This document shows, piece after piece, positions 27,218 to 59,560 of a DNA stretch of 64,000 nucleotides. The translations under genes were made by a program, and so were the position numbers. Position 1 is the first letter of the stretch. Each line of letters begins with the position of its first letter. The notes below the pieces were generated by a model, which was given only the letters and a program-made list of their open reading frames with translations, ran no database searches and was not told where the DNA came from. This DNA comes from Naegleria gruberi (lineage: Eukaryota), in assembly GCA_000004985.1 (NCBI GenBank), contig GG738855.1. One strand, 5' to 3'.

Positions 27218-28930
27218 TTAGAATGAGAAGTGTCTAGCCACAATTGAATTCTCACCATACTCATCAAATTCATCCTTTGTAACACACATGTTGTCAAATG
27301 TACTCAAGGACATTAAGATGTTGGCTCCTAATAAAATGGAGTCCTCTCTATTCTTATTAATATTGACTGTTACCGTTTCAGCTCGCAATGACTTGGTTAA
27401 TTCTGATTGAGTGAGTTTCTTTTCCAATTCTGTAGAGAATCTCTCAGGTAAACCTTGGAAATTTGATGACCCTCCACAAACAACAAGGTTATTCAAGCTT
27501 GTCAATACCATTTCCTCATCCATAGATTCCAAACTCTCAATAACTGAATTTTGAATGCTTCTTCCACACCAAGATTCATAATATTGCTTATCAATAGATA
27601 AGTCAAAGAAAAATTCTGTACAATCTCCCAATATACCCTCTGATTCTGTTGGAATTCTCAAAATATTACCATCTGGAAGGTTGAAAACTGGTGCAGTATC
27701 ATTTTTTCTATCTTTCGAATGTACTTTCGTATAACAAAGTTTCTCCTTAATAGATCTCAAAATCTCCTTTTCTGAACTTGTAGCAAACTTTAAATTGACA
27801 GTATCCAAACATTGATTTTTCAAAAGCATTGCTTGTAATACTTCCTCAACTGAATGACCACCAAAAGGAATGGCCTTCAATGAATTCCATACAGGCATTC
27901 CTTCATAGACTGGCAATACTGTTGTGAATAACTCTCCCATATCAATAACCATACCACTTGTTTTACCAATACTGAAAATTGGCAAGACATGATCAAGAGA
28001 TAGATACATTTTCTCATAATTCCAACTATCGAATGCATAATGAACGAGTTTCTCCTTCAAAGTTACATCTCTGTACAAGTAGAAAGGTAAAGCAGTGAAG
28101 AGACATTTAGGAGAATTTTGAGAGTTGACTCCTCTAATAAATTCAGCAACTTTCTTCTCCAACATTTGTTCACAATAGGATACAATTGGTTCAGTGTATG
28201 ATGTTGGTTGCTGTTTTGTCTTGAATGGAAAATCAATACGTTCAGAGACAATATACTGATCGAAATACTTTTTTAGCGGATAATTAAGTGTACTAATTGA
28301 CCTTTGTTCCAAACATTCATTTCCAAAGGTTTTCAAATCTTGTCCTCTCATCTTACTTTCAAAATCATGATTTCTATCCTTTCTATTCGCAATAACAGTT
28401 GCTTGATTCATCAATCTAATCTCATTTCCATCTCTACTCATTGAAATTTTAGTATTTTGAGCACCAATTGACCAAAATACTTTCACTTGATCACTTTCTT
28501 TCAAAATCTTTTCCGAAAATCTTTCCTTTACCAACAAATCTTGTCCCTTTTTCAATTTCTCCAAGAATTTACCATCATCATTTCTATCAACACTCCCGAG
28601 AGTAGCAGCTTGATTTAAACTCTTTCCCTTTCTATCATTCAAATCACTCCACTTTAATTGTTGCAATGCCGTTGTTGGATCACCCTTTCCCAATTTGACT
28701 TTAAATTGTGTTGTATGTTTGTTTGAAAATGATTCCCTATTTGCTTCTTCGCTGGTTCGTTGGGCAATTTTCCTCTGCAATGAGACAATTTTATTGATAA
28801 TGATGAGGGAGAGGATGGAAACTACAATGGTCGAAAATGATAAAAAGATTAACAGATTTGGAGTTAATCCGTAGGCATCGAGGCCATAGTCATGAATGGA
28901 TTCTGCAATGGCTTGTCTCCAAATGTCCAT
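27218..28930 (-). CDS. Divergent actin-related protein with an N-terminal hydrophobic signal-anchor/TM segment and large insertions
   Basis: Actin-fold signatures in the C-terminal half: GMVIDMGELFTTVLPVYEG; VVCGGSSNFQGLPERFSTEL; LGANILMSLSTFDNMCVTKDEFDEYGENSIVARHFSF (compare the actin C-terminus [28 protein letters not shown]). The N-terminus has a ~23-residue hydrophobic stretch (LLIFLSFSTIVVSILSLIIINKIV). Confidence 0.7.
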   Translation of the reverse strand: MDIWRQAIAESIHDYGLDAYGLTPNLLIFLSFSTIVVSILSLIIINKIVSLQRKIAQRTSEEANRESFSNKHTTQFKVKLGKGDPTTALQQLKWSDLNDRKGKSLNQAATLGSVDRNDDGKFLEKLKKGQDLLVKERFSEKILKESDQVKVFWSIGAQNTKISMSRDGNEIRLMNQATVIANRKDRNHDFESKMRGQDLKTFGNECLEQRSISTLNYPLKKYFDQYIVSERIDFPFKTKQQPTSYTEPIVSYCEQMLEKKVAEFIRGVNSQNSPKCLFTALPFYLYRDVTLKEKLVHYAFDSWNYEKMYLSLDHVLPIFSIGKTSGMVIDMGELFTTVLPVYEGMPVWNSLKAIPFGGHSVEEVLQAMLLKNQCLDTVNLKFATSSEKEILRSIKEKLCYTKVHSKDRKNDTAPVFNLPDGNILRIPTESEGILGDCTEFFFDLSIDKQYYESWCGRSIQNSVIESLESMDEEMVLTSLNNLVVCGGSSNFQGLPERFSTELEKKLTQSELTKSLRAETVTVNINKNREDSILLGANILMSLSTFDNMCVTKDEFDEYGENSIVARHFSF

Positions 28931-36218: not shown

Positions 36219-39200
36219 TTACTTCTTTTTGGCTTTCTTTGACTTTCCAGTCTTCTTGGCATTCTTTCTCTTCTTTGATTTAGGTTCCTCTTCCTCTGGT
36301 TCTTCCTCAGAGTATTCTTCAATATCATCATGTTCTTCCTCAGAGCACTCTTCAATATCATCTTCGTCTATTTCTTTCTTTTGAGATTTTTGAGAGAAAA
36401 GAACTGGTGAGCTAGGGGTTGGTGAACGGTCTGTCTTCTTCTTTTTTGAGGTCTTCTTTTTCTTTGGGGAACCCTTCTTATTAGAGAGACCTTGTTTTAA
36501 ATTTCTCAATTCCTCATCAATATTTTCCAATTCACCCTGAATTTCTTCAATTTCGCTCTTGTGTTTTTCAATAGTTTCTTCCTTTTGCTGTTCAGTTTGG
36601 GCATATTCTCCCTTCTCGAAAGCAATTGTTTCTCTGAGTACTTTCTTATACTCTTCAACCTTCTTCTTCTTTTCTAGCAGTAGTTTGACTTCAGGATTTT
36701 CGCTGAGTGGAGTTTGACCAAAACGGAAAACTGGTGGACCTGTAGCCTTAGAACCAGCATATACGATACCAGTTGCTTCAATTCTCTCTCCATCAAGTGT
36801 TAGAATCAATGGGACTGCTAAATTAATTTCCAGTCTCTTTTTTCTGAATGCCAAACCAGTAAGGAATGTTTCAAAAACTAAACTACTACCTAATAAATTC
36901 CAAAATGCATGTCTAATCATTTCTCGTCTAATGTCTATTTCTATCAGATTTACAGAATAGCCAACAAATCCATCTGCGTCAATTGGATCCAATCTCAATC
37001 TACCTTCATTATCCATACCTTTTGAACATTTCTGGATATTATCGAGGGGTAAAACTGGTATCTTGTGAGGGAAATTTTCTAGGAGTCGTCTCACTTTTTC
37101 CATACCATTAGAATCTTGTACAACAATACATTGCATCTTATCTCCCAAGAACCTAGAAATTGTGTCATTGTGCTTTTCATTATCTATATAACCTAGCTCT
37201 CCAAGAATTCCCACAATTCCACTATCTGTTTCCTTTTGGAGTTGTTTTACTTTCTGCAAGGCCTTGTTTTCCGCAAGGCCAACATTGCACTCTTTTTGTT
37301 TTCTACTGTTCTGTGTCTTGATCTCTAACTTCTTTTTAAGAATATTCAATAGTTTGTCAGCATTTTCCATATTTGGCATATCATTTTCGAAGTTCAATTC
37401 ATATTCTTTGATTGTTTTCAGTATATCATTCATTGTGGATCTGAAATTACTAAGCTTGAATTCATTCTCTTGGTGATTTTGCTCGGCTTTCTTAATTTCC
37501 TTCTTCAGATAATCTAGTTCACTGAGACAATTTTGTTTCTTCTCTTGGAGTTCCTTCTCAATTTGTTGAATAGCACTGTTATCAGTAAATCCAAATTCTA
37601 ACTCTTTTGGTGGAAGATTTTTAGTTGTAAAAACTAGCTTATACAAACCAGTTTCACCTGATCCCTCCTTTATGCTAACTCTTGAAAACTTGGCACGACC
37701 ATTCTCAAATTTAGCTACTAAATCCCCTTCTAGCTCAGGAAGTTCACTGTCCATGCTATCTTCTGTTGGTTGAATGGAAAGAGTGACCTTTTTAATTTTA
37801 TCATCGGCAATCACAGTATTGGAATACTTGTCTATCACTTTGAGTGAAAGTTCTTCCCAGAATGATCTTGCATCAATATTTTCTCCCATATTGGTAACTA
37901 CAGGAAGCTGGAATTTATCATTTTCTATTTCCAAAGCTTCCGGATCTCCAGGGGAGACAGCAATATCTAGAGTAGTGTTTATACTCCCATTCAGTCCAAG
38001 AATTGGAACATATGGCAATGAAGAAATGTCCAAAGTAAATCTATATCTGTAAACTCCGGATTTAGTAAATTCTTTTTCACTATTTGCGAATGTATATGTT
38101 AAACTCTTGGAAGCAGATGGGCATGATATGAATTGCCTTTTATCTCCTCCTTGAGGGTTTGCTACTTCCATAATGATTGAATTTGGAGCCTTAACAGGTT
38201 TTCCACTTTCTCCCAAAACTACAACTTCAAAAGGGTCTAAAAAGTCTCCCACCACAAGATTTGTTGTCTTATTGGTAACCTTGAGTTCTGCTGGATGGGA
38301 GCTCTTGATAATATTTACAATAAAGCAAGTCTTGTTTGCCTTTGTTAACTCGTATTCAATCCAGAAAGTATGTCTTCCCTCTGTACCTTTAACCCAAAAT
38401 TGTGGCATATAGGCTCTTCCATTTTCAATTTGTAAATCGATGGACTGATTGACTTCTCCTTGATATTGGATAATTTCAATATCAGTCTCTGGAGGTTCAA
38501 TCTCAAAGTTTCCATGTTGATGTATTACGTTACCAAACTTATCGTGTGTTGTAATGTAAAATGATGGAGTAAGATTATAATTTTCAACATCGAATACTAC
38601 CTCTCCTATCATGTCATTAACTCTCAAAGACACTGGTGGTCCTGGTTCAAGGAGAATATTTTCAATTTTACCCTCTTTGATTTTACCTCCCTTGTCAATA
38701 ATCTTCAAATGGAATTCTCCAGAAGGGCCTATCAAGCTTACATCATTATATTTAAAAAATTTAAAGTGTTCATGGTCATCCAATCCTGTTAGGAGTCGTA
38801 GTTTGTCGAAATCACAAATTTCAATACTTTCTGCTTCACCATTCAATTGAGAAACTATTTCAATTGAAGGTTCAATATTCTCAAGTTCTGGATAATTTTC
38901 ATTACTCTCGTTATCCATCCTATTTCCAAATGCATCCATAATACTGAACTTAACACTGAACTTTTGTTCACATTTAAGTTTTTCAGGTATTGACTTTCTC
39001 TCTATTTTAAATATGCATGGAGGCCCTGTTATGACACGTAAATTAATGGTAAAGTTTGCTATTATCATATCTGTGTCAATATCATCATCGTTCTGTACGG
39101 AATCTCCTGCTGCTTTGGAGAGTATATCGACAAAATATTTAGTAGTTTTAAAAATTTGTGGAACTACTAGAGTTGGTAATTCGCAAATACCTTTTTTAAC

Positions 39201-42200
39201 TTCTAAAAGATTGGCTTTACACCATGAAGCTCTGGCGTATGCATCAATCTCTATCCTTTCGTACATTTCATTGCATAATTCCAAATTCCATCCAACTAGT
39301 TCTGAACTGACTATTGCATTCACTGTTACTTTAAGTGCAGATCTCTCCTTGATCATATTCTTTTCCTCAGTGGTTCTAGTTAGGAGGTTAAATGAAGAAG
39401 GTTTTGCAACTGAAGCTGATTCAATAGTAAGTGGAACATCAATGCAAATATCTTGGTAACTTAGTGTTATATATGCCTCTTTTCGTTGAGAACTACTTTG
39501 AGAGCTTCCTATAGCTATATTTTTGAATTGGAAATAACCAGTTTCAGTATTAAAGGTACCAGAAGCTTCTTCTTTCAAACATTCTCCTTTTACGGTTATG
39601 GTGAGAGGGGTAAAGTCATCTTCACCATCATAAAAACATGGAATGTAGATTTGATTATTTTTCTCATCCAGTAATTTGGCCTCAATATCTGGTAGAATTT
39701 TCTTTACAGAGTTTCCTGACAAGGCAGTAGCTGCATCTTCAGAAAGTTGAATAGTGTGAACGGCTCCAGCAAATATCACCATATCAATTTCAAGAGGTTG
39801 CATAATTAGACCAAATGCTATCACTAATTTTGTTTTTACAAACTTGTTGGAACCTAATGGAGCACTTTTAACAACAAGCTCAGTAATTTCTATTTGATTG
39901 CTATTGTTGAAGGAGGCCTTAAATGAGGATAGTTCTACGGTATCATCAGTTGTTGTAATTTTAAGTTCTTCCGTAATGTTACAAGTTGTCTCTTTGAAAG
40001 GAACAACATTACCATACGTGTCTTGTTGTTCAATGATTAGTGTGGGGAATGGTTTGTCAATAAAGGTTAAAAGGGAATCCTTGAGTTGACTCTTATCTAA
40101 AAGAGATTTGGCACCTTTAACTTTTGGTAAATTGTTGGAAAGTGACAGAGTGGATGGCGCCGCAGCAGTTACATCAATTTTTACCACCTTTGCTTTGATT
40201 CCACTGTCCTCAGAAGAGGATAATTCCAAAATATAAGTACCCACAGATGTAAATTCTGGCTTCAGCTTGTAAGGCTTGAAGCAATGCACTCCTTTTTTAA
40301 AAGCCTTTGTTGAAGTGAGTGACTCATTAAGTTTTTGTTCTTCTTCATTATCACCTTCATAGGTTATGGTCAAAGTAACTGGGTAGAGTTGGTTTGTCAC
40401 AACCTTGTGATCTCCTGTCATTATACAAGCCGACAGGTATTTGAGAGAATATCCAGCTGTAACAGCGTCAGGTGGTGGTCTTCTCTCTCTTGCAGTAACA
40501 TTTGGTGTATCTACAACATCTATATAGCTCGGTAGCTTATTTTTCATTTTGCTGACTTCAGCTTTAAACTCTTGCTTGGTGAGAAGGTTTTGTACTTTTG
40601 ATATTGGAAAGCACTGTCCATTCTTTGAATCATCTGACTCCTTTTCAGGTGACCATTCCTTAACTACAATAGTTACAGAGTATTCTTCTGATGACATGTC
40701 CCTAAACATATCAACAAGAGTTCCAATAATTTTAGGTCTAGTTTTCATGACTAGATAATCTCCAATGGAATAATTTGTTTGTCCGTATTTGATCTTTTTG
40801 TAGAATGTTTTCATACCCTTTCCTTCTTTTTGAGTTCTTTCGAAATCACATTCGTCAAAAATTATTTCTTCATCTAATTTTTTGTGGCATTCCTTAATCC
40901 ATTTTCTATACCTCTGTGTCAAGTTTCTTTCGCTGTAATTTAAAAGTGCTTGACAGAGTGCTGTTTGTTTGCAAAGGTACATTTTGTTGGCCGATACTTC
41001 AAAATTAGAATCAAAAAAGAGCATTCCCTTAATTCTTCTATAGCAATTTTCTGGAATATCCCTATTACTTCTTTCCTTCTCCATAAAAGGTAAATTTTTG
41101 ATTTTTTCATTAGCTAACAGTCTACCATTCCAAAAGCATTCAAATCCAGGATTTCTTTCGCTCAGAGGTACTTCTTGGTCAGTAGGAATATATTTTCCTC
41201 CTTCCAAATATAATTCTTCTGGTATTGGAAGAGTTTCTCTTCCTTGTTTGAAAGGATAGTAATAAATTATTCCTCTCACTGTGCTATTAATTATCGACAC
41301 TCCATATTGGGATGATGTTGGCAGGGTCATTTCAGGCGCGTTCAAATTTTCTCCATTTTTGACACTGAGTTTGATTTCAAAAGTGAACGGTGACTTTCCC
41401 TCCTGAAGATATAATGTTTCCATGTCCTTGTCTTCATTCGATATGGCTGTGCCATCTACTTTCATTATGACATTTTTAGGTTGCTTTAATTGCCATAAAT
41501 CGTCTTCATCAATTGAGGGCATCTTTGTTTTCTTTTGAGACTTGATTGGTGGCATTTCTTCCTCCTCTCCTTCGGAAAGATCATCAATATCACTCATGTT
41601 ATCATTTTCATCAGGATCTTCAATAATATCTCTTCCTTCCTTATTACCATCAGTTCCATGTATATAATAGTGATAGATGTGGCCTAAACGCTTCTTGATA
41701 ATTGCTGGATCATATCTATCGACATAGACCTTCTTAATGTCCGAAATTGTAAAGTGAGTAAAGCTTTCCCATTGTTTTTCTGTATCAGTTGGAGGTCTAG
41801 AAATACAATTGGCTTTCCATTGTTTGTCTTTTCCTGAAGTAAAATCTTGCTCCAACTTTTGCCTTGAAAGGGAAACTTCATAAACAAATCTTGAATCTTT
41901 TGGTTTTGAGACAAGAGTGACTTCATCTCCCAAGTTGAAAATGGCCTTCTTGGAACCTACACCATACCTGGAAAAGTCTGACGTAACAAATTTATCAAAA
42001 AACCTTCTGCGGAGTGGTGCCTTTTCTCTTGTTGGCAACTTGGAATCATCAACTGGGGCTTCAGTAATACCAAGAGTAGCCCAATTGACTAAGGTTTTAA
42101 AATTCATTCCTCTTCCATTATCCCAAATATGGAGCTTGCTTGTAAGTTCATTACTCTGTGTAGGCTTTTCAAATCGAATTTCGATAAGCCTTTCATTCTT

Positions 42201-43037
42201 GTTGAGGACAGTGTTTTGAATAGAATTGTCCAAAATTTCAGCAAGAGCGGTAATGAAGTCATATTCATCTCCTCCGTGAATTAAAATATTTACATGAGGT
42301 ACAATATCTACAGTCAATTGTAAATTAGCCTTAACTTTAGAAGATGATTCAGAAGTATTTTGGCCATTTTTCAATGTCAATATAAAACACCCATGACTCG
42401 AAGTGGGTGGTAAGTTTCTTGTCGAATGAGCACTTTGATTAATGTCGTCTAATATGATAACTTCGTTGGTGTTTGCCTTAGATTTTCCAATTTGAGATGC
42501 ATCTAAATCGGCATCCTTTACATCCTTATCATCCAAATTTCTAATAGATTCAATTTCATTCACAGATTTTAATTTAAAAATCTCACAAATGTAATGTTTC
42601 AATTGATTCACACTTGAAATTTTAGATTTAGGCCCAACAAGTTTTGTTTTTCCAGTGTGGGCATCCACAATCTTGTACATTGTTGGATCTGAATTTTCTT
42701 CGATTTTTGCAGTTGTCTCATCGTTTAATTTGGTTTTTTTTCTTGATGGTTCTATTTCTTTCTTAATTTTAGTTTCTGTCACTGTTGGTGGTTGACTTGC
42801 AAGTTTTGTTGGTTGTGATGATGATTTTGTTGTTTCTTCCGATTCCGATATTTCTTCATATTCGTCAATAATATTACTATCATCTTGGTCTTCCAAATAT
42901 TTACTACTGTTATTGGAGGTACTCTTGTAACCATTTTCCTCATCGTTCTCTGAGGAGGTTCTCTTTTTAGATTTCTTTGCCGTTGTTGATGAAGAATTTT
43001 TGCTGTTCGTCTTTTTGCTTGATGACTTTGGAGGCAT
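36219..43037 (-). CDS. SMCHD1-like giant protein (2272 aa from ATG): N-terminal GHKL/MORC-type ATPase and C-terminal SMC hinge domain, with an acidic/basic low-complexity tail
   Basis: GHKL N-box and G1 box (LAEILDNSIQNTV … LHIWDNGRGMNFKTL). The C-terminal SMC hinge consensus GIVGILGELGYIDNEKHNDTISRFLGDKMQCIVVQDSNGMEKVRRLL…LTLDGERIEATGIVYAGS is preceded by a coiled coil. Single uninterrupted ORF; ATG at 43037 (MPPKSSSKK). Confidence 0.75.
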   Translation of the reverse strand: MPPKSSSKKTNSKNSSSTTAKKSKKRTSSENDEENGYKSTSNNSSKYLEDQDDSNIIDEYEEISESEETTKSSSQPTKLASQPPTVTETKIKKEIEPSRKKTKLNDETTAKIEENSDPTMYKIVDAHTGKTKLVGPKSKISSVNQLKHYICEIFKLKSVNEIESIRNLDDKDVKDADLDASQIGKSKANTNEVIILDDINQSAHSTRNLPPTSSHGCFILTLKNGQNTSESSSKVKANLQLTVDIVPHVNILIHGGDEYDFITALAEILDNSIQNTVLNKNERLIEIRFEKPTQSNELTSKLHIWDNGRGMNFKTLVNWATLGITEAPVDDSKLPTREKAPLRRRFFDKFVTSDFSRYGVGSKKAIFNLGDEVTLVSKPKDSRFVYEVSLSRQKLEQDFTSGKDKQWKANCISRPPTDTEKQWESFTHFTISDIKKVYVDRYDPAIIKKRLGHIYHYYIHGTDGNKEGRDIIEDPDENDNMSDIDDLSEGEEEEMPPIKSQKKTKMPSIDEDDLWQLKQPKNVIMKVDGTAISNEDKDMETLYLQEGKSPFTFEIKLSVKNGENLNAPEMTLPTSSQYGVSIINSTVRGIIYYYPFKQGRETLPIPEELYLEGGKYIPTDQEVPLSERNPGFECFWNGRLLANEKIKNLPFMEKERSNRDIPENCYRRIKGMLFFDSNFEVSANKMYLCKQTALCQALLNYSERNLTQRYRKWIKECHKKLDEEIIFDECDFERTQKEGKGMKTFYKKIKYGQTNYSIGDYLVMKTRPKIIGTLVDMFRDMSSEEYSVTIVVKEWSPEKESDDSKNGQCFPISKVQNLLTKQEFKAEVSKMKNKLPSYIDVVDTPNVTARERRPPPDAVTAGYSLKYLSACIMTGDHKVVTNQLYPVTLTITYEGDNEEEQKLNESLTSTKAFKKGVHCFKPYKLKPEFTSVGTYILELSSSEDSGIKAKVVKIDVTAAAPSTLSLSNNLPKVKGAKSLLDKSQLKDSLLTFIDKPFPTLIIEQQDTYGNVVPFKETTCNITEELKITTTDDTVELSSFKASFNNSNQIEITELVVKSAPLGSNKFVKTKLVIAFGLIMQPLEIDMVIFAGAVHTIQLSEDAATALSGNSVKKILPDIEAKLLDEKNNQIYIPCFYDGEDDFTPLTITVKGECLKEEASGTFNTETGYFQFKNIAIGSSQSSSQRKEAYITLSYQDICIDVPLTIESASVAKPSSFNLLTRTTEEKNMIKERSALKVTVNAIVSSELVGWNLELCNEMYERIEIDAYARASWCKANLLEVKKGICELPTLVVPQIFKTTKYFVDILSKAAGDSVQNDDDIDTDMIIANFTINLRVITGPPCIFKIERKSIPEKLKCEQKFSVKFSIMDAFGNRMDNESNENYPELENIEPSIEIVSQLNGEAESIEICDFDKLRLLTGLDDHEHFKFFKYNDVSLIGPSGEFHLKIIDKGGKIKEGKIENILLEPGPPVSLRVNDMIGEVVFDVENYNLTPSFYITTHDKFGNVIHQHGNFEIEPPETDIEIIQYQGEVNQSIDLQIENGRAYMPQFWVKGTEGRHTFWIEYELTKANKTCFIVNIIKSSHPAELKVTNKTTNLVVGDFLDPFEVVVLGESGKPVKAPNSIIMEVANPQGGDKRQFISCPSASKSLTYTFANSEKEFTKSGVYRYRFTLDISSLPYVPILGLNGSINTTLDIAVSPGDPEALEIENDKFQLPVVTNMGENIDARSFWEELSLKVIDKYSNTVIADDKIKKVTLSIQPTEDSMDSELPELEGDLVAKFENGRAKFSRVSIKEGSGETGLYKLVFTTKNLPPKELEFGFTDNSAIQQIEKELQEKKQNCLSELDYLKKEIKKAEQNHQENEFKLSNFRSTMNDILKTIKEYELNFENDMPNMENADKLLNILKKKLEIKTQNSRKQKECNVGLAENKALQKVKQLQKETDSGIVGILGELGYIDNEKHNDTISRFLGDKMQCIVVQDSNGMEKVRRLLENFPHKIPVLPLDNIQKCSKGMDNEGRLRLDPIDADGFVGYSVNLIEIDIRREMIRHAFWNLLGSSLVFETFLTGLAFRKKRLEINLAVPLILTLDGERIEATGIVYAGSKATGPPVFRFGQTPLSENPEVKLLLEKKKKVEEYKKVLRETIAFEKGEYAQTEQQKEETIEKHKSEIEEIQGELENIDEELRNLKQGLSNKKGSPKKKKTSKKKKTDRSPTPSSPVLFSQKSQKKEIDEDDIEECSEEEHDDIEEYSEEEPEEEEPKSKKRKNAKKTGKSKKAKKK

Positions 43038-43142
43038 TTTATTCTTGTGTTTGTTGGAATACCAACGAGAAATATTTTGGCGCCAAATCTTTAAAGATAA
43101 AAATACAGATCTCGTAACTAATGCCATGTTATTGGAAACACC

Positions 43143-48754: not shown

Positions 48755-51700
48755 ATGTCTACAAACCCATCACGTAGATCAAACTTTCATTCTAGAGGCT
48801 CCATCTCGAGCAGCAGCCCAACACTAGATGAATTTACTATCGGTAGGTGTTATCAACACTAGTTGATGGGCTAATATCATATTATTCTTATGTAATATTT
48901 TCAACATTTATTATGTGGAACAAATATTTGTGTGGATTAATAATAACAATAATAGAAAATTATAAAAGAAAGATCAAGGAGCAAGAATCGGAAATAAGTG
49001 ATCTCCAAAAGGAACTCCATAATTTTCGTATGAAGGAAAGTGATTTTATGTTTAATTCTTTGTTGATGAAGTTTTCATCAGAAAAGAAGAGGAAGAGAGA
49101 TGAGTTCGATGAAGATTCTTGCAATGACACCAGTCAAAGTGTAGCAAAAGCCGAGCAACAAAACACCCACCAAAGCACTCATCTTGCAAATGGAAAACCA
49201 CAAATCACTTTGGAAGAACACGAAAAAAAGATTTCCGAATATACTGCTCAAGTAGAAAACCTAGAGAAGGAAAATTCCGATTGGAAAACCCAAATAACCT
49301 CCTTGAAGGAATTACATGGAAAATTAGAACATCAATTCAATCAGCTTACAGAACAATTAGAAAAGTCTCTCACTGAAAACAAAAGAATTACTGAGGTTTG
49401 TGCTCAAAACGAACAAGCTGTCAAGAAGGCAGAAAGTGAAATCGAATCTTTAAGAAATGAGTTGAAACAAAAAGAAAATATCCTAAACCAATCTAATCAA
49501 GAGTTGGAAACCAGAAAGAATGAGTTGGAAAATGTGAAGAAAGAGTTAGATAGTGTAAAGAGCGAGATGGAATCACAAATCAAACAATTGACCACTCAGC
49601 TCGAACAAAATCGACAACCTGTAACTCAAATTGCTAACAATGACGAGAAGGAAAAGGAGCTCACTCAACAAGTTAAGAATCTTGAGGAAGTTAATTCTAA
49701 ACTTCAACAAGAAATTGTCAGTCTCAACAAGGAAAAGGCCTCATTGGAGCAATTAAATGTTACTCTCAACAGTGATTTGATTAATTCACATGAACAAGAA
49801 AAGGAAAGAGCCAAGAAGGTCAATGAGCTGGAATCGACATTGTCCCTACTTGATGATGACAAGAAGAGACTCGAACTTCTCATCAAGGAAAATGAAACAC
49901 TCTCCGAGGAACGTGTTCGTACTGCTTTGAATGAATCCGAGAGTAAGGATGCTCGTATCACAGAGTTGGAACAACAAAAACAAGATCTCACTACTCATGT
50001 GGAAGAGTTAAAGACTAAAATCAGTGATATTACCAATAACCAATCCAATTATGATCAACAACTTGTGTCTGAAATTGAAAATCAAAAACAATTAATCACA
50101 CAAAAAACACAAGAATTGGAAGAGAGAAATGCTAAAATTGTGGAATTGGATAGCCATGTCCAAAAATTACAACAAGACCTCTCTAATGAAAAGGAACAAA
50201 GCACTAAGAGTATGAATGAAATCACATCACAAATTGAAGCACTCAAATCAGAATTATCTGCAGCCACTGAGAGTCATGCTATAGTTTTGAATGAAAAGAC
50301 CACACTCCAGAATGATATTCAAATTCTTGAAAATGATAAGAATCAATTAAGTATCCAACTTAAAGAAATTCAAGGACACCACGAAAGCCTTCAAGCTTCT
50401 ATTTTGGAAAATGAAAAACAAAAACAAGGTTTGCAAACATCTCTATCAGAATACGAAATCAAAATCGCTCAAAACTCTGAACAAATTAACTTGTTACAGG
50501 CACAAATCGAAAGTCTCAAACAAGTTGAAACACAACTCCAAAACTTGAAATCTGAAAATGAACAATTACAACAACAAGCCACCTCTTATACCGAGTTATT
50601 AAAGAAGAGAGAGGGCGAACTTACCAATCAACAAGAAAAAGAACAACAATTGTTACACCAAAAGGAAGAGGAGATTAAAAGTATTCAAACCAAATATCAA
50701 GAAAGTATCAAAAAGAGAGATGTCAAATTGAATAACATGGAAAGCGAAATCCAAGAATTGAAGAAAGCCTTGGAATCTGCCACCTCTGAAAAGAATCTTC
50801 TTAATACAACTATTGAACAACAAAAGAAGACATTTGAAGACAAACTTGACGATATTAATACACGACACCAAGAAGAAAAGAAGAATCAAGAAAAGCTAGC
50901 AGCATCTCTTACAGAAACATTGAACGAAAAGAATACTTTGGTGGAAAAACTCAAGAGTGAAAAGAATGCCCTAGTTGAAGAAAGATCTCAATTGAAAGCT
51001 AAAGAGGAACTTTTACAAACAACCATTGAACGCTATCGTGCCGAAACAGAGGTGGAATCCAATAATAATAAGAAGAAGGGTGTTAAGCGTGATTCTCAAG
51101 ATGATACTGCACCAACATCTTCCTCAACAATGGACCCTCCAAAGAAGAAGGTAAAGAATGACACACCTGCTAAGAAAGAATTCAAAGTTATATTTTCTGG
51201 TTTTAATGACAAGATTGCCAAGTATACTAATGCTTTCAAGAAGACTTTGGAGGATTATGTTAAGGAATTAGGAGGAGTTATTGTTGACGATGTAGATATG
51301 GGAGCAACACATGTTGTAGCACCACCTGGTGTCAGAAGTAAGTACTATTGATTACCTAAATTATTAACAAGTGTCAGCAATCAAGGTTCTCCAGGCAGCA
51401 GTTGCACACATTTGGATCATGAATCCTGAATGGCTTGAGGAATGTAAGAAACATTCCAAGCTTGTTGGTATGTTGTTGTAAACATTTAAATTCTAATTTT
51501 TCCAAGACGAATCTTCTTTTGGTAAACTGAGAGAGGAAGAATTATTTAAGGGAAAGAATGTCGGTTTTACTGACGCATTTAAAAAGGAATGTGATAATTC
51601 AAAGTATAAGGCTCAAAAAAGAATGACCAATGCCAAAACTCTTGTGGAAGGAGGGTCAGGAGCTGTTACTGAAATGGAAGAAGCTGAATTGATTTTAGTG

Positions 51701-51790
51701 TCTGCTGAGGAAAGTCTTTCTGCAAACGGTAAAACAAAGAGAGTTTTTACTTGGGAAGGATTCCTTGATTACATTTTCCCAAAGAATTAA
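48755..51790 (+). CDS. Long coiled-coil protein with a C-terminal BRCT domain, 4 exons: 48755..48842, 48956..51337, 51372..51467, 51507..51790
   Basis: ~800 aa of continuous heptad coiled coil. The BRCT fold is split by two micro-introns (34 and 39 nt): FKVIFSGF…GATHVVAPPGVR | MSAIKVLQAAVAHIWIMNPEWLEECKKHSKLV | DESSFGK…. The first exon (MSTNPSRRS…) joins via a 113-nt GTAGGT...AATAG intron. Confidence 0.7.
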
Positions 51791-51928: not shown

Positions 51929-54289
51929 TTAAAGGAAGAATGGGTTATTACGAAGTTTTGTTGATGGGTATTCTTGTGTCAAGTCAACTGATTCAATTGA
52001 TTTTTTGGCGTAGAGTAAACATGCTGGCATTCTTACAGAACCATTCCAATTATAGTAGAGATGTGTTTGTCTGAAAGTAATTTTGATAATCTCATCAACT
52101 GAGAACATGGTATTGTTGAACAAAACTTGGTATCTGACTGGTTTGCTGTATCCAATATTACTATTAATAAAGCACGAGTTCATGTAAAATTCTTGAGTTT
52201 GGTATCTTGACATACTGGTAACAACAGTACCAATTGGTGGATTCTGATTATCCATATTAAATCTGGCATTAGAGTCCTTGTTTACACTAACCAGGCAAAC
52301 TTTGGTATATTCCATTTCAGCTTCAAGACAAAAGTCATGAATAAGTTGAGAAATATCAATACAATCATGTCCACTATTGTACAAAATCAAAGCACTAGGC
52401 ATTCCTCCACTGTTTCTATTACGAAAAGCTTGCAAGGCCTCCTTAATACTTGACAATAACTTGTTACGAATGTTTGTTTCATCACTCTCTCTGAAGGGAA
52501 CTGTATAATACAGAGTAGTACTAGTATTTAGTGAGAGTGAAATGGAGCCTTTAAAGTTTCTTCCCTTTCTCTGAATATCAATACCACAAACTGATACAAA
52601 CTCTTGATAGGATCTTTCGACAGACCAAATAAGACCACCAATCTTGGCTGACATTTGTATCAAACAATTAGGAAGTCTCTTAAACCAATCTCCATTACAA
52701 ACAATACATTGTGAAGGAATACCAACAGTACAATTGTAAAACTGTTTCAATGCACTGTAAATATGCTTATTTTCATTAGCCATGAGGAAAAAGACATAGT
52801 CCAGGTCATTCCAATTTTTGTAACCTTCAATATCATGCATAAAATCTCTACCACGATCATCCAAATCAAATACAAGAGGCTTTCCCAAATCGTACCTTCT
52901 AATGGCATCCATAAATCCTTTAACAAGGAATTGTGGTGATACAAGCGCCCAATTTTTTCCTTGCAAACTGTTAATGACAGTATCCATAGAAACAGTCCAT
53001 TTGTCATTTTTCATGCCTTCAATTCCAGAGACTTGTGGTTGTGGAACAACAGTAAAGCTAGTTTCAAGTGCTCTGTCGATTTGCAATCCAACCGAATCAA
53101 GGAATTGTCTTGACTCTCCACTATTCATTTTGTTAGAAATTCTGGTTATGTAGTCTTCCTTTTGTGTAACTGATTTCTTTGGAATTTTCCTCAAATCCTT
53201 CTTGTTAATACCAGAAATGTAACAAAGTTCTGGAATCAGATAGTTAACTTGTTTTTTCTGATTTCTCATCTTGACCATAACACAAATCAAAGGCTGATTC
53301 TTATCTCTAACATTGATATTGTATCTTTCCTTATAGTATTCAAAGTAAGGAACATCTTTTCCATCTTTTTTAAAGGTCGATGAAGGTGTTTGGTTGAAAT
53401 CAATATCCTTAATGACAAATGATCTATTATTGTAGACGATACTGAGACCCTTATATCTTTCTGCTATGGATAAATAGTTATCTCTTTGCATATCATTCTT
53501 CAAATCTTCAATCATGGAATATCTGCTAGTGATCTTTTGTTTGAATGTTAAGGAGAGACACAAACCACTTCCAAGGAAGGCTAAAGCAGGAATAACACCA
53601 TCTCTCACAGAGTATCTATCAACGATAGCGCCTTCTTTTTCAACTTCAGCAAATCCCAATCTATCCATCTTTAAGTATTTAAAAACCTTGGTCAGACAAA
53701 ATGAAATAGCCTGTTCTAATCTAGTATCTTGAATATTATTGTTAATGGAAACTTCAGTCTTTCCTTCAATTTTCACTAAGAATGGAATCTTGACACCATT
53801 CTTTTCGTATGGCATAACAATTTCTAAGGATGGAACCTTCTCAACAGAAACAATTAATGAGCCATCAAACATTGGCAATCCAGGAATTTGTGAGGTCCAA
53901 TTATAAGTCTTTTTTATCATGAAAAACAACTTGAATTTGAATGGAACTATATTCAACATGGATTCAGCCCATCTCTTACTTTCTTCTGGAATTTCAGCCC
54001 ATTCGGTTGTTTTGGATGCACAAGTCACAGAAAATGATGATAATTCGAAAATTCTATTCGGAAGCATTCTGATTGGAAAGAAGTTTGTTTTAATTCTATC
54101 GGATGATGTTCTTTGCCCTCCGTGGCCTCCTTGATAGCCTCCTCCACGACCACCAAAGCCTCCATGTCCTCCTTGATAACCTCCTCCACGGTGGTGACCA
54201 CCACCCTGGTGATGTGATGGTCTTCCAGAGTTGTCCTCCTTGAAACGTTTGTTATAGTCTTGATTTCCTTCGAAGCCTCTCTTGCTCAT
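51929..54289 (-). CDS. Argonaute/PIWI-family protein with an N-terminal RGG/GGH-repeat region
   Basis: RGG box (GGGHHRGGGYQGGHGGFGGRGGGYQGG). PAZ-like YLIPELCYISG. PIWI motifs (VCGIDIQRKG; ALILYNSGHD; SVRMPACLLYAKKS, compare SIPAPAYYAHLVA). ATG at 54289; the track start is TTG. Confidence 0.85.
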   Translation of the reverse strand: MSKRGFEGNQDYNKRFKEDNSGRPSHHQGGGHHRGGGYQGGHGGFGGRGGGYQGGHGGQRTSSDRIKTNFFPIRMLPNRIFELSSFSVTCASKTTEWAEIPEESKRWAESMLNIVPFKFKLFFMIKKTYNWTSQIPGLPMFDGSLIVSVEKVPSLEIVMPYEKNGVKIPFLVKIEGKTEVSINNNIQDTRLEQAISFCLTKVFKYLKMDRLGFAEVEKEGAIVDRYSVRDGVIPALAFLGSGLCLSLTFKQKITSRYSMIEDLKNDMQRDNYLSIAERYKGLSIVYNNRSFVIKDIDFNQTPSSTFKKDGKDVPYFEYYKERYNINVRDKNQPLICVMVKMRNQKKQVNYLIPELCYISGINKKDLRKIPKKSVTQKEDYITRISNKMNSGESRQFLDSVGLQIDRALETSFTVVPQPQVSGIEGMKNDKWTVSMDTVINSLQGKNWALVSPQFLVKGFMDAIRRYDLGKPLVFDLDDRGRDFMHDIEGYKNWNDLDYVFFLMANENKHIYSALKQFYNCTVGIPSQCIVCNGDWFKRLPNCLIQMSAKIGGLIWSVERSYQEFVSVCGIDIQRKGRNFKGSISLSLNTSTTLYYTVPFRESDETNIRNKLLSSIKEALQAFRNRNSGGMPSALILYNSGHDCIDISQLIHDFCLEAEMEYTKVCLVSVNKDSNARFNMDNQNPPIGTVVTSMSRYQTQEFYMNSCFINSNIGYSKPVRYQVLFNNTMFSVDEIIKITFRQTHLYYNWNGSVRMPACLLYAKKSIESVDLTQEYPSTKLRNNPFFL

Positions 54290-54789
54290 TTCGTGTGTGG
54301 CTTTGTGATTTGTGTTGGTCGAAGGAAAAACTGGCAATATGTTGTTTGCTTATTTTTTTGATTAACTGAAGAGAAATTGAATGATTGAAAAAGGCTGGAA
54401 AGTTTGTTCAAAATATTTGTTTCTAAACAAAAGGCTTCTTGTTCAAAGTCAAGAAATTATGTTTAACTCAAATCTCAAACATGATACATCAGCTGGAGTA
54501 CAGTTTATAGTGATTAATTAAAGCTGGCATTTAGTGAGGTATCTCAACAATTATTCATTATTGTAAAGAAAGCTAAAAACATAAAAGTATCTCCCATTGA
54601 TGATGGGTTACAATTACCTTGTTGTTAAAAGTTCAGATCTTCCAAACACTTTCAAAGTATTCTTTCAGATGAATGATTCTTCCAACATGAGCACAACCCA
54701 TTAAATAAGTTGAGAGAATTCATGAGACCTTCATGATTTTATCTTTCTGGGTTCAATTCACAACATGGGAGAATTATTTTGCTTTTATC

Positions 54790-54905
54790 AACTACGGCCA
54801 TATCACGATGAATGCATCTCATCCCGTCCGATTTGAGAAGCATCGTCGAGCCACATCAGTACTGAGGTTGGAGACAACTTGGGAACCTGTGGTGCTGTAG
54901 TCTTT
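54790..54905 (+). rRNA. 5S ribosomal RNA gene
   Basis: Matches universal 5S elements (ACGGCCATATCAC, GAATGCATCTCATCCCGTCCGATTTGAGAAG loop C, AGTACTGAGGTTGGAGAC, TTGGGAACC, GGTGCTGTAG). Ends pair as helix I (AACTACGGC / GCTGTAGT). Followed by a T6 Pol III terminator (TCTTTGTTTTTT). Ends are approximate to a few nt. Confidence 0.85.
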
Positions 54906-54987: not shown

Positions 54988-55060
54988 CTCCCCCTGGTGG
55001 GCTCGAACCACCGACCTGCAGATTAACAGTCTGACGCTCTACCGACTGAGCTAAGGGGGA
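54988..55060 (-). tRNA. tRNA-Asn (anticodon GTT)
   Basis: Reverse complement gives TCCCCCTTAGCTCAGTCGGTAGAGCGTCAGACTGTTAATCTGCAGGTCGGTGGTTCGAGCCCACCAGGGGGAG. It has a 7-bp acceptor stem, D-arm GCTCAGTCGGTAGAGC, anticodon loop CTGTTAA, T-arm GGTGGTTCGAGCCCACC, and a T6 terminator 4 nt downstream on the minus strand. Confidence 0.9.
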
Positions 55061-55269: not shown

Positions 55270-56505
55270 ATGGAAAATCAAATCGAACCAATTTCTCTCA
55301 TTCTTTCCGATTCTCCCTCATCAACACTTCTCAAACAACATTTTCACTCACAAACTCGATCCCTCCTCCAAAGATACAATCAAAACCGTAAATATCTCAA
55401 ACAAGTAAAAGACAGTGCTGGTCGATGTTTAGAATTCTTTCCCGGAACAATCAAATCAAGAGAATTAGCAATCTATGGTCTTTCTCAGTGTGGTAGTTAT
55501 TTGAGTAAATGTTCCGAGGTGTTGAGGAATGATGAATTGGTTGTCTCGATTGCTGTTCGACAGGATGGTCTCTCACTCCAATTTGCCAGTGATTTATTGA
55601 GGAGTAGGAGGGAGATTGTTATGCAAGCTGTTCAACAGAATGGAATGGCATTGAAGTATGTTGAAAAGAAATCGGAAATGTTGAAGGAGAGGGAAATTGT
55701 TATGAAAGCCATTCTCACTACTCCGATGGTGTTGATGGAATTTAATGAAAAGGATTTGATTTCTGATAGGGAAATGGCATTGACTCTCATCAGACAAAAT
55801 CCTACAATATTCAAATTTCTGAATAGTCAATTAAAATCAGAGAGGGATATACAATTGGAAATTCTATCATTGGATGGGAAATATTTGGAATTTTTCAATG
55901 AGGACATGTTATTGTGTAGTGATAGGAAATTGGCATTCCTTGCTGCAAGAAATAGTAAATTGGCTTATCCTTTCATTGAGAAATCACTGAGGGATGAAAT
56001 TGCTTTGGAAAAGGGTGATTTGACATTTGTGGAGAAGGTTTCAAGAATTCAAATAGGAGAGTATGCTCTCCTGACAAGCAATCAAATTCCATGTCAGATT
56101 GAAAGTATTGAAAAGGATTATAGTTCATCAAAGTGTGGGCCTTCATTCAAAATTAATATTTCAGGAAGAGCTCTATTTGCTCAATTAACTATTAATAATT
56201 CAAATCCAATACATATGACCTATTTTGCCAGTGTCAGTAATTTATCTGCACTGGTGTGCCCTTTCGTTTACAGAATCAAGTGTCAACTAATTGGAATTTC
56301 AGAAAATGAGACCCTTCTAATGAATATAATTTCAAGTGATTCAAATGCAAAGCTCTCACAATTTCACAAAAATCTCCTACCTGACTCAATTATTAATTGT
56401 TTAACAGACTCAAACACAATTTTAGAAATTATTCAAGTAATGGGTGAGCAAAAGATTGTGAGCATTACTCAAAACAATATCACCACATTACTTTCATATC
56501 AGTAA
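55270..56505 (+). CDS. DUF4116-type repeat protein (hypothetical)
   Basis: Tandem ~35-aa repeats of the form ELVVSIAVRQDGLSLQFASDLLRSRREIVMQAVQQNGMALKYV / EMLKEREIVMKAIL… characteristic of the DUF4116 family. Confidence 0.5.
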   Translation: MENQIEPISLILSDSPSSTLLKQHFHSQTRSLLQRYNQNRKYLKQVKDSAGRCLEFFPGTIKSRELAIYGLSQCGSYLSKCSEVLRNDELVVSIAVRQDGLSLQFASDLLRSRREIVMQAVQQNGMALKYVEKKSEMLKEREIVMKAILTTPMVLMEFNEKDLISDREMALTLIRQNPTIFKFLNSQLKSERDIQLEILSLDGKYLEFFNEDMLLCSDRKLAFLAARNSKLAYPFIEKSLRDEIALEKGDLTFVEKVSRIQIGEYALLTSNQIPCQIESIEKDYSSSKCGPSFKINISGRALFAQLTINNSNPIHMTYFASVSNLSALVCPFVYRIKCQLIGISENETLLMNIISSDSNAKLSQFHKNLLPDSIINCLTDSNTILEIIQVMGEQKIVSITQNNITTLLSYQ

Positions 56506-58291: not shown

Positions 58292-59560
58292 TTAAACAAA
58301 GTTTTGGAAGACTTGGGATCTACGAGCAATAGATGGACCCATTTCATCATATTGAGCCTTGGTATAACAGACTCTCTTGAATTCGTTCATAGTACCCAAC
58401 ATGGAACCACCAAACCAAACAGCAAAACGTTGGTGATTGTGAGCAATAACGTTACATTCCAAAGGACTTGGCTTTGGCTTACCACTTGAAGTCATGGAAA
58501 CAGCTCTTTCATAACGTTCATCCAATTTCTTCTTCATGTCACGTTGTAAACGTCTATCAAAGTGTTCAAACATTGTTGAACCACCAGAAAGGACAATATT
58601 CTTGTACAAAGCTCTACGAGCATCAATTGGTGATGAGAGAATACATTGATCAACAACGTCTGGGAGTGGAGTGCTGAAAGTTTCAGTGAAAATTTCTGGA
58701 TTGAAAAAGACTTCTGGAGCCAAGAATCTTTCATAGGCAACATCAATTTCCCATTTACCAGATCTCTTATTTTCTTGAGAGTACTTGAGAATATTTTCTG
58801 CTGGATTTTGGTCAAATTTACCAAATTCCTTTGCCAAATCGGAACAGACATAACAATACTTTTCCTTGATCTTTTGGACAGCCAATTTGATATCTTCAGA
58901 TGGCATATTCTTTTCACGATCCATAACGAAACGCATCAAGAATTCAGTGACATCTCTACCAGCCAATGGGATGTGTTTAATACTAGAACCAATGACATAA
59001 CCTTCAACAACAGGAATGACGTGAGTAACACCATCACCAGAGTCAATAACAGTACCAGACAATGTACCACCCAAACCAAGCTTTTTAGATTTGGATGATG
59101 TCCAAGAAGCACACAAAGCCAAAACAGCTTGGACAGCAATGTACAAACCAGAAACGTTGAATGTTTCGAACATAATTTCAGCTGTTTGTTCACGATTTTC
59201 TGGTGGATTGAGTGGAGGTTCAGTCAACATCAAGTAGTGATCCTCAGGTTCACATTTCAAATAGTTAAAGAAGCATTGTTCCCACAACATTTCCATCTTG
59301 CTCCAATCTTCAATAAGACCGTGTCTCATTGGATATACCAAATCATAGTTTCCACCAGTTTTTTCTTGTGCTTCATAACCAATGTAGAAATCGAGATCTT
59401 CCAAACCCTTTTCTGCTGATTTTGGATTGTGTGAAATACAGGTTGGAATGATATAGTTTGGTTCACTGTTACCAGCATAACCCATCTTGGTAAAACCAGT
59501 ACCATTGTCAATAACAAGGACTGGATTGTTTCTAGCAATAACGTCGTTGGAATAACTCAT
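58292..59560 (-). CDS. ARP3: Actin-related protein 3 (Arp2/3 complex subunit)
   Basis: End-to-end Arp3 similarity: VIDNGTGFTKMGYAGNSEPNYIIPTCI, EPEDHYLMLTEPPLNPPENREQTAEIMFETFNVSGLYIAVQAVLAL, VIDSGDGVTHVIPVVEGYVIGSSIKHIPLAGRD, IVLSGGSTMF, AVWFGGSML. 422 aa, single exon. Confidence 0.95.
   Translation of the reverse strand: MSYSNDVIARNNPVLVIDNGTGFTKMGYAGNSEPNYIIPTCISHNPKSAEKGLEDLDFYIGYEAQEKTGGNYDLVYPMRHGLIEDWSKMEMLWEQCFFNYLKCEPEDHYLMLTEPPLNPPENREQTAEIMFETFNVSGLYIAVQAVLALCASWTSSKSKKLGLGGTLSGTVIDSGDGVTHVIPVVEGYVIGSSIKHIPLAGRDVTEFLMRFVMDREKNMPSEDIKLAVQKIKEKYCYVCSDLAKEFGKFDQNPAENILKYSQENKRSGKWEIDVAYERFLAPEVFFNPEIFTETFSTPLPDVVDQCILSSPIDARRALYKNIVLSGGSTMFEHFDRRLQRDMKKKLDERYERAVSMTSSGKPKPSPLECNVIAHNHQRFAVWFGGSMLGTMNEFKRVCYTKAQYDEMGPSIARRSQVFQNFV

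Follow-up and report, generated by a model that had tools for sequence, protein, structure and literature searches.

The locus described here lies in a stretch of 64,000 nucleotides (nt) of DNA from Naegleria gruberi (NCBI GenBank assembly GCA_000004985.1, contig GG738855.1), to which we refer as the window, and holds a gene for an Argonaute protein that, judging from its sequence, has retained the means to bind a guide RNA and has probably given up cutting. The complete coding sequence, 786 amino acids (aa) followed by a stop codon, occupies positions 51929..54289 on the minus strand, as identified from the list of open reading frames (ORFs), the translation, an exact-sequence match and the Pfam domains PAZ and Piwi. 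The ORF itself spans 51929..54337 from an upstream TTG, and from the ATG at 54289 it encodes the 786 residues without interruption. The product begins with MSKRGFEG, and the orthologues from N. lovaniensis and N. fowleri likewise begin with MSKR, which supports this ATG as the start codon. An earlier note on this DNA, made from the letters alone, had placed an Argonaute/PIWI gene at the same coordinates, and the gene is indeed there, with PAZ and Piwi domains in one intact ORF. By exact-sequence look-up, the protein is XP_002680133.1 (EFC47389.1, UniProt D2V7J4), "argonaute [Naegleria gruberi]", on a 613-kb scaffold of strain NEG-M; three more ORFs in the window are exact N. gruberi matches as well, namely ARP3, a DUF4116 protein and NAEGRDRAFT_78904. 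The 90% cluster of XP_002680133.1 is represented by a 446-aa fragment from the Logan assembly (ERR1078381 contig) with 99% DNA identity, which is presumably another strain.

All parts of the gene are given below by their minus-strand positions in the window. The PAZ domain, with the pocket for the 3' end of the guide, covers aa 260-368 (53186..53512; Pfam PF02170, E 2.9e-21, 76 bits against a cut-off of 28.8), and the RNase H-like Piwi domain covers aa 499-764 (51998..52795; Pfam PF02171, E 7.8e-35, 121 bits against a cut-off of 28.9). An AlphaFold2 model, for which a 14-sequence alignment served as input, has a mean confidence score (pLDDT) of 81.2 and a predicted TM-score (pTM) of 0.74, and is ordered from residue 63 onwards. 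The predicted fold is that of a full-length, bilobed N-PAZ-MID-PIWI Argonaute.

The catalytic site is where the protein departs from slicing Argonautes. From a MAFFT alignment of 161 relatives we took the 101 PIWI-clade proteins with a DEDH tetrad, built a profile hidden Markov model (HMM) from them, and aligned the Argonaute to it, which gave D571, N606, S639 and K762 at the tetrad positions, with high posterior probabilities (pp). The first position, D571, is kept (52577..52579; GIDIQRK against GiDvyhd in the profile, pp '*', within CGIDIQ). In the Glu-finger region N606 stands at the position of the catalytic Glu (52472..52480; SDETNIRN against ekgeElvd), S639 replaces the second catalytic Asp (52373..52375; YNSG, within LYNSG, against YRDGV), and K762 replaces the catalytic His (52004..52006; YAKKSI against YAHKlA). 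Three independent pairwise HMMER comparisons, against MIWI, EfPiwi and Drosophila Piwi, give the same reading as the profile, as do two MAFFT alignments, and for N606 the distance counted to the second catalytic position leads to the same placement as HMMER, MAFFT and the profile. In the large MAFFT alignment, a Glu internal to a helix in the Naegleria orthologues is brought under the catalytic Glu by way of a gap; according to the spacing count and the profile HMM this pairing is arbitrary, and it was rejected. Thus, of the slicer-type tetrad DEDX, where X is His or Asp, the first Asp is present, while the Glu finger, the second Asp and the final His or Asp are all missing. Within the 161-sequence alignment, the combination DNSK is found in the Argonaute of the window and its strain variant, and in no other sequence.

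The earlier note had suggested, from an alignment by eye, that Lys stands at the position of the catalytic His, that the catalytic residues are possibly incomplete, and that the Argonaute would not slice, and it had named a profile alignment to slicer-competent proteins as a check that could show an intact DEDH tetrad. The profile of 101 proteins does not restore the tetrad, and together with the HMMER pairwise and MAFFT alignments it confirms the Lys as K762. Beyond the His, the protein has also lost its second Asp and, as aligned, its Glu finger, both of which the note had missed, and with these two further positions gone the prediction of a non-slicing protein becomes stronger than the note had argued. 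The published mutants point in the same direction, since the single change H874K in Siwi almost abolished slicing and E708V reduced it, while Drosophila Piwi, whose tetrad is DVDK, is no slicer unless the canonical residues are restored (PMC7015924). A further residue lies outside the tetrad: the position of human AGO2 (hAGO2) His600, a residue that stabilises the Glu finger once it is plugged in (PMC7015924), is taken by R574 here and by Lys (K617) in Drosophila Piwi. The RNase H active site, with three non-canonical positions, is degenerate, and in view of the published mutants it seems fairly safe to read the protein as one that has lost its cutting activity.

The residues that hold the guide tell a different story. 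The 5'-phosphate pocket formed by the MID and PIWI domains, Y511, K515, Q527, Q545 and K549 (52643..52759), is invariant in two alignments and receives a pp of '*' in the profile; its counterparts in Drosophila Piwi are Y551, K555, Q567, Q589 and K593, together with the C-terminal L843 (PMC7015924). The C-terminal residue of the Naegleria protein, Leu786 (51932..51934), is likewise an invariant column, and in PIWI-clade structures the C-terminal carboxylate helps to coordinate the metal at the guide's 5' phosphate (PMC7015924). The core of the PAZ domain (Y286, P302, F306, Y318, Q332, P333 and L351-E354) is invariant across PIWI-clade alignments. Judged by these residues, the Argonaute looks built for binding guide RNA and target, and not for cutting the target.

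The same pocket helps to place the protein among Argonautes. Q545 shares an invariant column with the PIWI-clade proteins, and in the HMMER alignment it is paired with Q589 of Drosophila Piwi. At this position PIWI-clade proteins carry a metal-coordinating Gln (Piwi Q589, Siwi Q645), and AGO-clade proteins a Lys (PMC7015924, PMC12477606). In a phmmer search of all Protein Data Bank (PDB) sequences, the best matches were Drosophila Piwi (2e-45), MIWI (5e-39) and EfPiwi, MILI and Siwi (1e-27 to 1e-31), whereas human AGO1-4 reached 3e-11 or weaker, with AGO1 and AGO2 between 1e-8 and 1e-11. A Foldseek search of the PDB with the AlphaFold2 model as query returned PIWI-clade structures at all of ranks 1-18 (MILI, HILI, Piwi, Siwi, EfPiwi and MIWI; E 1.7e-50 to 3.8e-43, TM-scores of 0.58-0.75 over about 790 aligned columns), with the first AGO-clade structure at rank 19. 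When 1.84 billion representative sequences were searched, all those that we checked by name among the best 150 matches listed were PIWI-type, including animal Piwi and Ago3, ciliate Twi and an Anaeramoeba piwi-like protein. Finally, the AGO-clade Pfam domains ArgoN, ArgoL1, ArgoL2 and ArgoMid were not found in the protein at E-values up to 1. By sequence and predicted fold, the protein thus belongs to the PIWI clade and not to the AGO clade, an assignment that is based on three concordant tests, the PDB sequence match, Foldseek and Q545.

One could also suppose that the protein is an AGO-clade effector of small interfering RNAs or microRNAs which merely resembles PIWI proteins, and which acts downstream of Dicer as the Argonautes of classical RNA interference (RNAi) do. 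N. gruberi does encode several Dicer-like proteins (PMC4791657), and the GenBank name is simply "argonaute". We nevertheless regard this as very improbable, as the PIWI-clade structures match at least 30 orders of magnitude better than human AGO1-4, and the structural ranking, the Gln in place of the AGO-clade Lys and the lack of matches to the AGO-clade Pfam domains all speak against it. Moreover, a 2026 review of the prospects for RNAi in pathogenic amoebae lists for N. fowleri a single Argonaute homologue, a different protein of 1079 aa that is the best match in this species to human AGO1-4, and makes no mention of the PIWI-type Naegleria protein (PMC13315211). PIWI-clade proteins characteristically bind guides of the piRNA type, which are made independently of Dicer and carry a 2'-O-methyl group at the 3' end. 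Membership of the clade by itself, however, leaves undecided whether the guides of the Naegleria protein are products of Dicer.

Among the matches listed, the closest relatives are all heterolobosean. The orthologue of N. lovaniensis is 44% identical to the N. gruberi protein, a partial N. fowleri-type sequence (P0004, whose cluster holds N. fowleri XP_044564388) 46%, and an "aubergine-like protein" from the Joint Genome Institute (JGI) metagenome 3300059473 (P0003) 41%, followed by two paralogues of Willaertia magna (33% and 31%) and a homologue from Pharyngomonas kirbyi (27%). Aligned to the profile, the tetrad reads E/D/S/K in N. fowleri and N. lovaniensis, the D with low confidence (pp 6), D/A/S/K in the metagenomic relative, A/E/E/S in the Willaertia paralogue P0015, and D/H/D/Q in Pharyngomonas, with a pp of 5 for the H. 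The second Willaertia paralogue, P0016, could be read from the MAFFT alignment alone, as -/E/E/S with no residue at the first position. None of the five profile-aligned relatives has the canonical tetrad, and all five keep the 5'-phosphate pocket. Ser at the third position and Lys at the fourth are common to all four Naegleria-type sequences, and these two substitutions are therefore older than the divergence of the sampled Naegleria species. The orthologue in N. lovaniensis has one 106-nt intron, and the N. gruberi gene has none.

Selection on the family could be measured for one pair of genes, that of N. lovaniensis and that of the N. fowleri type, for which over 594 codons the ratio of non-synonymous to synonymous substitution rates (dN/dS) is 0.11 at a dS of 0.95. 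Between the N. gruberi gene and the other Naegleria genes no value was obtained, the synonymous sites being saturated (pS 0.79), and the comparison with the 99%-identical strain contig yields 13 nt changes, with 8 non-synonymous and 4 synonymous differences, which are too few to be informative. Five of these eight amino acid differences (R464G, G469R, L472Y, D475H and L476F) fall within 13 codons, 464-476 (52862-52900 in the window), a region that aligns poorly between species; the cluster may mark a surface loop that is hypervariable, or it may be an artefact of the assembly. The Argonaute evolves fast for a Naegleria gene, with 41-46% identity among the Naegleria-type sequences compared to at least 90% for ARP3 across Naegleria and Willaertia. 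The ARP3 gene of the window lies at 58292-59560 on the minus strand, and a single 90%-identity cluster spans the two genera; a second, divergent actin-family ORF is found at 27218-28930, also on the minus strand.

A gene in which three of the four catalytic positions are non-canonical might be suspected of being a decaying or unexpressed pseudogene, with the catalytic losses reflecting relaxed constraint. The earlier note had itself named an unexpressed pseudogene as an alternative, and the 8 non-synonymous against 4 synonymous differences from the strain contig could be taken in the same sense. The evidence for constraint, however, makes this hardly credible. The ORF of 786 codons is intact, full-length orthologues occur in at least three other heterolobosean species, and the guide-binding residues are invariant among them. 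Since the Ser and the Lys recur in sequences that are just 41-46% identical, the loss is ancient, and the protein has been retained ever since. The intact ORF, the confidently predicted fold and the dN/dS of 0.11 given above therefore exclude a pseudogene for practical purposes. What the comparison across species shows instead is a degenerate active site that is old and maintained, in a family under purifying selection.

In front of the folded part, the model predicts a disordered head comprising aa 1-62 (54104..54289), with a pLDDT below 50. The 67 residues preceding the conserved motif TNFF contain 33% Gly, 10% Arg and 9% His, which makes the head one of the Gly/Arg/His/Tyr type. The earlier note had described it as an RGG-repeat N-terminus, and the sequence it quoted, GGGHHRGGGYQGGHGGFGGRGGGYQGG, is real and is found at aa 29-55; what it amounts to is no classical multi-RGG box, but two RGG triplets within a duplication specific to N. 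gruberi. The duplication, at aa 34-58 (54116..54190), consists of two copies of RGGGYQGGHGG separated by FGG, and the two 33-nt copies agree at 29 of 33 positions, from which it follows that it arose recently. Tandem Repeats Finder reported nothing in the head region, where the repeat comes to just two copies of about 14 codons.

The two triplets, R34 and R48, lie 11 residues apart, both inside the duplication. Thandapani and colleagues are reported to have defined di- and tri-RGG motifs, in 2013, by triplets spaced 0-4 residues from one another, and by this definition the N. gruberi head, with its 11-residue gap, has neither. An RGG(G)Y motif is conserved in the three Naegleria species, occurring once each as RGGYHQ in N. 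fowleri and RGGYSQ in N. lovaniensis; it is absent from the Willaertia homologue, and Pharyngomonas carries a classical (GRG)n array. For sites of the form (G/A)R(G/A), the arginine-methylation motif through which PIWI-clade N-termini bind Tudor proteins, we counted one canonical GRG (G47-R48-G49) plus one HRG in N. gruberi, one site each in N. fowleri and N. lovaniensis, none in Willaertia and seven in Pharyngomonas. The beginning of the head also contains KR and KRFK separated by nine residues (aa 3-17, 54239-54283), which resembles a bipartite nuclear localisation signal with a linker one residue too short, the classical linker being 10-12 residues long. The basic pair K3-R4 is found again in the MSKR with which the N. 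fowleri and N. lovaniensis proteins begin, and both of these have a KRYK further along.

Taken at face value, the residues kept and lost suggest that the Argonaute is an RNA-guided binding platform, silencing by binding and not by cutting, a reading that we hold to be quite probable. On this model, the protein would load a small RNA as its guide, the guide would pair with complementary transcripts, and these would be silenced uncut through the recruitment of other factors. By analogy, the disordered head would be the likeliest docking or regulatory module, and it could act through arginine methylation and Tudor partners such as Tudor-SN, or through association with polysomes or ribonucleoproteins, as Tg-AGO of Toxoplasma gondii and AGO1 of Trypanosoma brucei would suggest. 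An outsourced nuclease, translational repression and Piwi-like co-transcriptional silencing are all compatible with the data, and we make no choice among them.

Several observations weigh against this model. The residue E604, two positions before N606, may stand in structurally for the lost Glu, and the tetrad would then be D-E-S-K. Tg-AGO, in which canonical residues are likewise missing, was later reported to have weak slicing activity (cited in PMC9935688), so that a degenerate site is no proof of zero activity. As for the head, its two RGG triplets and single canonical (G/A)R(G/A) site, with none in Willaertia, leave a role involving methyl-arginine and Tudor partners weakly supported.

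The first two of these points also bear on the alternative that the protein is still a working slicer, with a non-canonical site made up, for instance, of D571, of either E604 or D603, and of a further acidic residue nearby. D571 is kept, and D603 and E604, which lie 2-3 residues before the aligned Glu-finger position, are on or beside a loop for which known structures show flexibility; in the AlphaFold2 model, E604 starts the same predicted helix. Against this, S639 at the position of the second Asp removes a metal ligand, K762 corresponds to the change that nearly abolished slicing in Siwi, and the place of His600 is taken by Arg, as it is by Lys in the non-slicing Drosophila Piwi. The first position varies, N. 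fowleri and N. lovaniensis having Glu there, and the acidic residues of the Glu-finger loop sit at a different offset in each Naegleria orthologue. No acidic finger is thus conserved in position, which is not how a catalytic residue under constraint behaves. We therefore consider a surviving slicer activity unlikely.

The genes around the Argonaute offer no immediate link to a pathway, in that Pfam scans of 19 neighbouring ORFs identified no small-RNA pathway partner adjoining it. At 500-770 bp upstream of the start lie a 5S rRNA gene (54790-54903, plus strand), which scores 79.7 bits with Rfam, and one for tRNA-Asn(GTT) (54988-55060, minus strand), followed by a gene with DUF4116 repeats (55270-56505). 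Downstream, and convergent with the Argonaute, is a coiled-coil/BRCT gene (48847-51790, plus strand), for which the Pfam BRCT match has an E-value of 1.9e-9 after removal of a 34-nt intron. This GT-AG intron (51338-51371, plus strand) apparently interrupts the BRCT domain, and a second intron appears to follow soon after, with its donor near 51470. The arrangement described in the earlier note, 5S and tRNA on one side and a BRCT coiled-coil gene on the other, is hence correct, except that its RNA polymerase III cluster comes down to one gene of each kind.

About 9 kb from the Argonaute, a 2302-aa ORF without interruption (36219-43127, minus strand) encodes an SMCHD1-like chromatin protein with a GHKL ATPase, an S5-like region of the SMCHD1 type (E 6e-45) and an SMC hinge. 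Proteins of the SMCHD1/MORC type act in epigenetic silencing in animals and plants. In N. lovaniensis (PYSW02000030.1; 8799-14570 of the stretch L002), the PIWI orthologue has as its neighbour, 188 bp downstream and on the same strand, a gene for a 1906-aa ZNFX1-like helicase with ZNFX1, AAA_11/AAA_12 and RZ-type zinc finger domains. In other eukaryotes, homologues of ZNFX1 belong to small-RNA pathways. This pairing of PIWI and ZNFX1-like genes is absent from the N. gruberi window and from the N. fowleri-type contig.

PIWI-clade proteins in unicellular eukaryotes (ciliates, Diplonema), slicer-deficient Argonautes (Drosophila Piwi, Tg-AGO, ciliate Twi) and Arg/Gly-rich Argonaute N-termini are all known already, and the N. 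gruberi Argonaute is an annotated, unstudied example that unites the three traits. Slicer deficiency and Arg/Gly-rich N-termini each have ample precedent among Argonautes, which makes the biology unsurprising. We found no discussion of the annotated gene in the literature searched, nor any mention there of the accessions XP_002680133, D2V7J4 and EFC47389 or of the run ERR1078381, and the D/N/S/K state and its conservation across Naegleria were not found there either. A Naegleria pangenome paper mentions the presence of RNAi and piRNA elements in no more than an aside (PMC9928731), and whole-cell small-RNA libraries of N. fowleri exist as PRJNA991274 (PMC11761746).

If the sample is taken as a whole (N. 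gruberi, N. fowleri, N. lovaniensis, the environmental relative, the Willaertia magna paralogues and Pharyngomonas kirbyi), all heterolobosean PIWI-clade proteins in it lack the canonical DEDH and keep the guide-binding pockets, the second Willaertia paralogue being readable at three positions. One could speculate that the heterolobosean PIWI lineage, within free-living unicellular excavates, runs an ancient, lineage-wide, slicer-independent pathway that arose independently of the nuclear Piwi of animals, a tentative idea that we would not favour at present. Such a pathway might recruit a separate nuclease or helicase, such as Tudor-SN or the ZNFX1-like helicase encoded beside the gene in N. 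lovaniensis, or chromatin silencers. Naegleria is a deep-branching genus, and N. gruberi lives freely but is related to N. fowleri, a fatal pathogen. RNAi is under consideration as a genetic tool for amoebae of this type, and a slicer-dead PIWI-type protein beside an AGO-type Argonaute would bear on predicting whether double-stranded RNA triggers lead to mRNA cleavage. The protein would also be another independent case of a PIWI protein giving up cutting for binding.

A close parallel is Drosophila Piwi (PDB 6KR6), a nuclear, slicer-independent protein with the tetrad DVDK, which is the top PDB sequence match and has the same metal-type 5'-phosphate pocket. Both proteins carry Lys where the catalytic His would stand, a residue that is not acidic at the aligned Glu-finger position and a basic residue at the His600 position (K617 and R574), and Drosophila Piwi has been shown experimentally to be an RNA-guided binding platform and not a slicer (PMC7015924). 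The parallel has its limits, in that Drosophila Piwi keeps both catalytic Asp residues where the Naegleria protein has Ser for the second, and Naegleria is a unicellular heterolobosean without a germline. Given that overall identity to Piwi is just about 21-27%, the shared Lys is probably convergent. The nuclear localisation of Drosophila Piwi, its class of PIWI-interacting RNAs (piRNAs) and partners such as Asterix and Panoramix need not extend to the Naegleria protein.

In its layout, the protein resembles Tg-AGO, which combines a disordered, Arg/Gly-containing N-terminus of about 60-70 residues with PAZ, MID and PIWI domains, an intact 5' pocket and missing catalytic residues. The RGG region of Tg-AGO (aa 1-68) is needed for its association with polysomes, and PRMT1 and the nuclease Tudor-SN co-purify with it (PMC2877743). 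Tg-AGO groups with plant and algal AGO-like proteins (PMC9935688), however, and not with the PIWI clade, and its RGG tract is far richer than the two triplets of Naegleria. T. brucei AGO1 likewise is an Argonaute of a discobid protist with an Arg/Gly-rich N-terminal extension, although it has many RGG repeats, unlike the Naegleria protein. It is a member of the trypanosomatid AGO family, with a role in mediating classical RNAi. Its N-terminal RGG domain was reported to be critical for polysome association (cited in PMC2877743). Among unicellular members of the PIWI clade, Tetrahymena Twi9p and a homologue in T. utriculariae have a degenerate tetrad as well, ETQE in the MAFFT alignment. These ciliate Twi paralogues differ from the Naegleria protein in carrying other substitutions, in belonging to another lineage with large PIWI families, and in an identity of about 25-27%.

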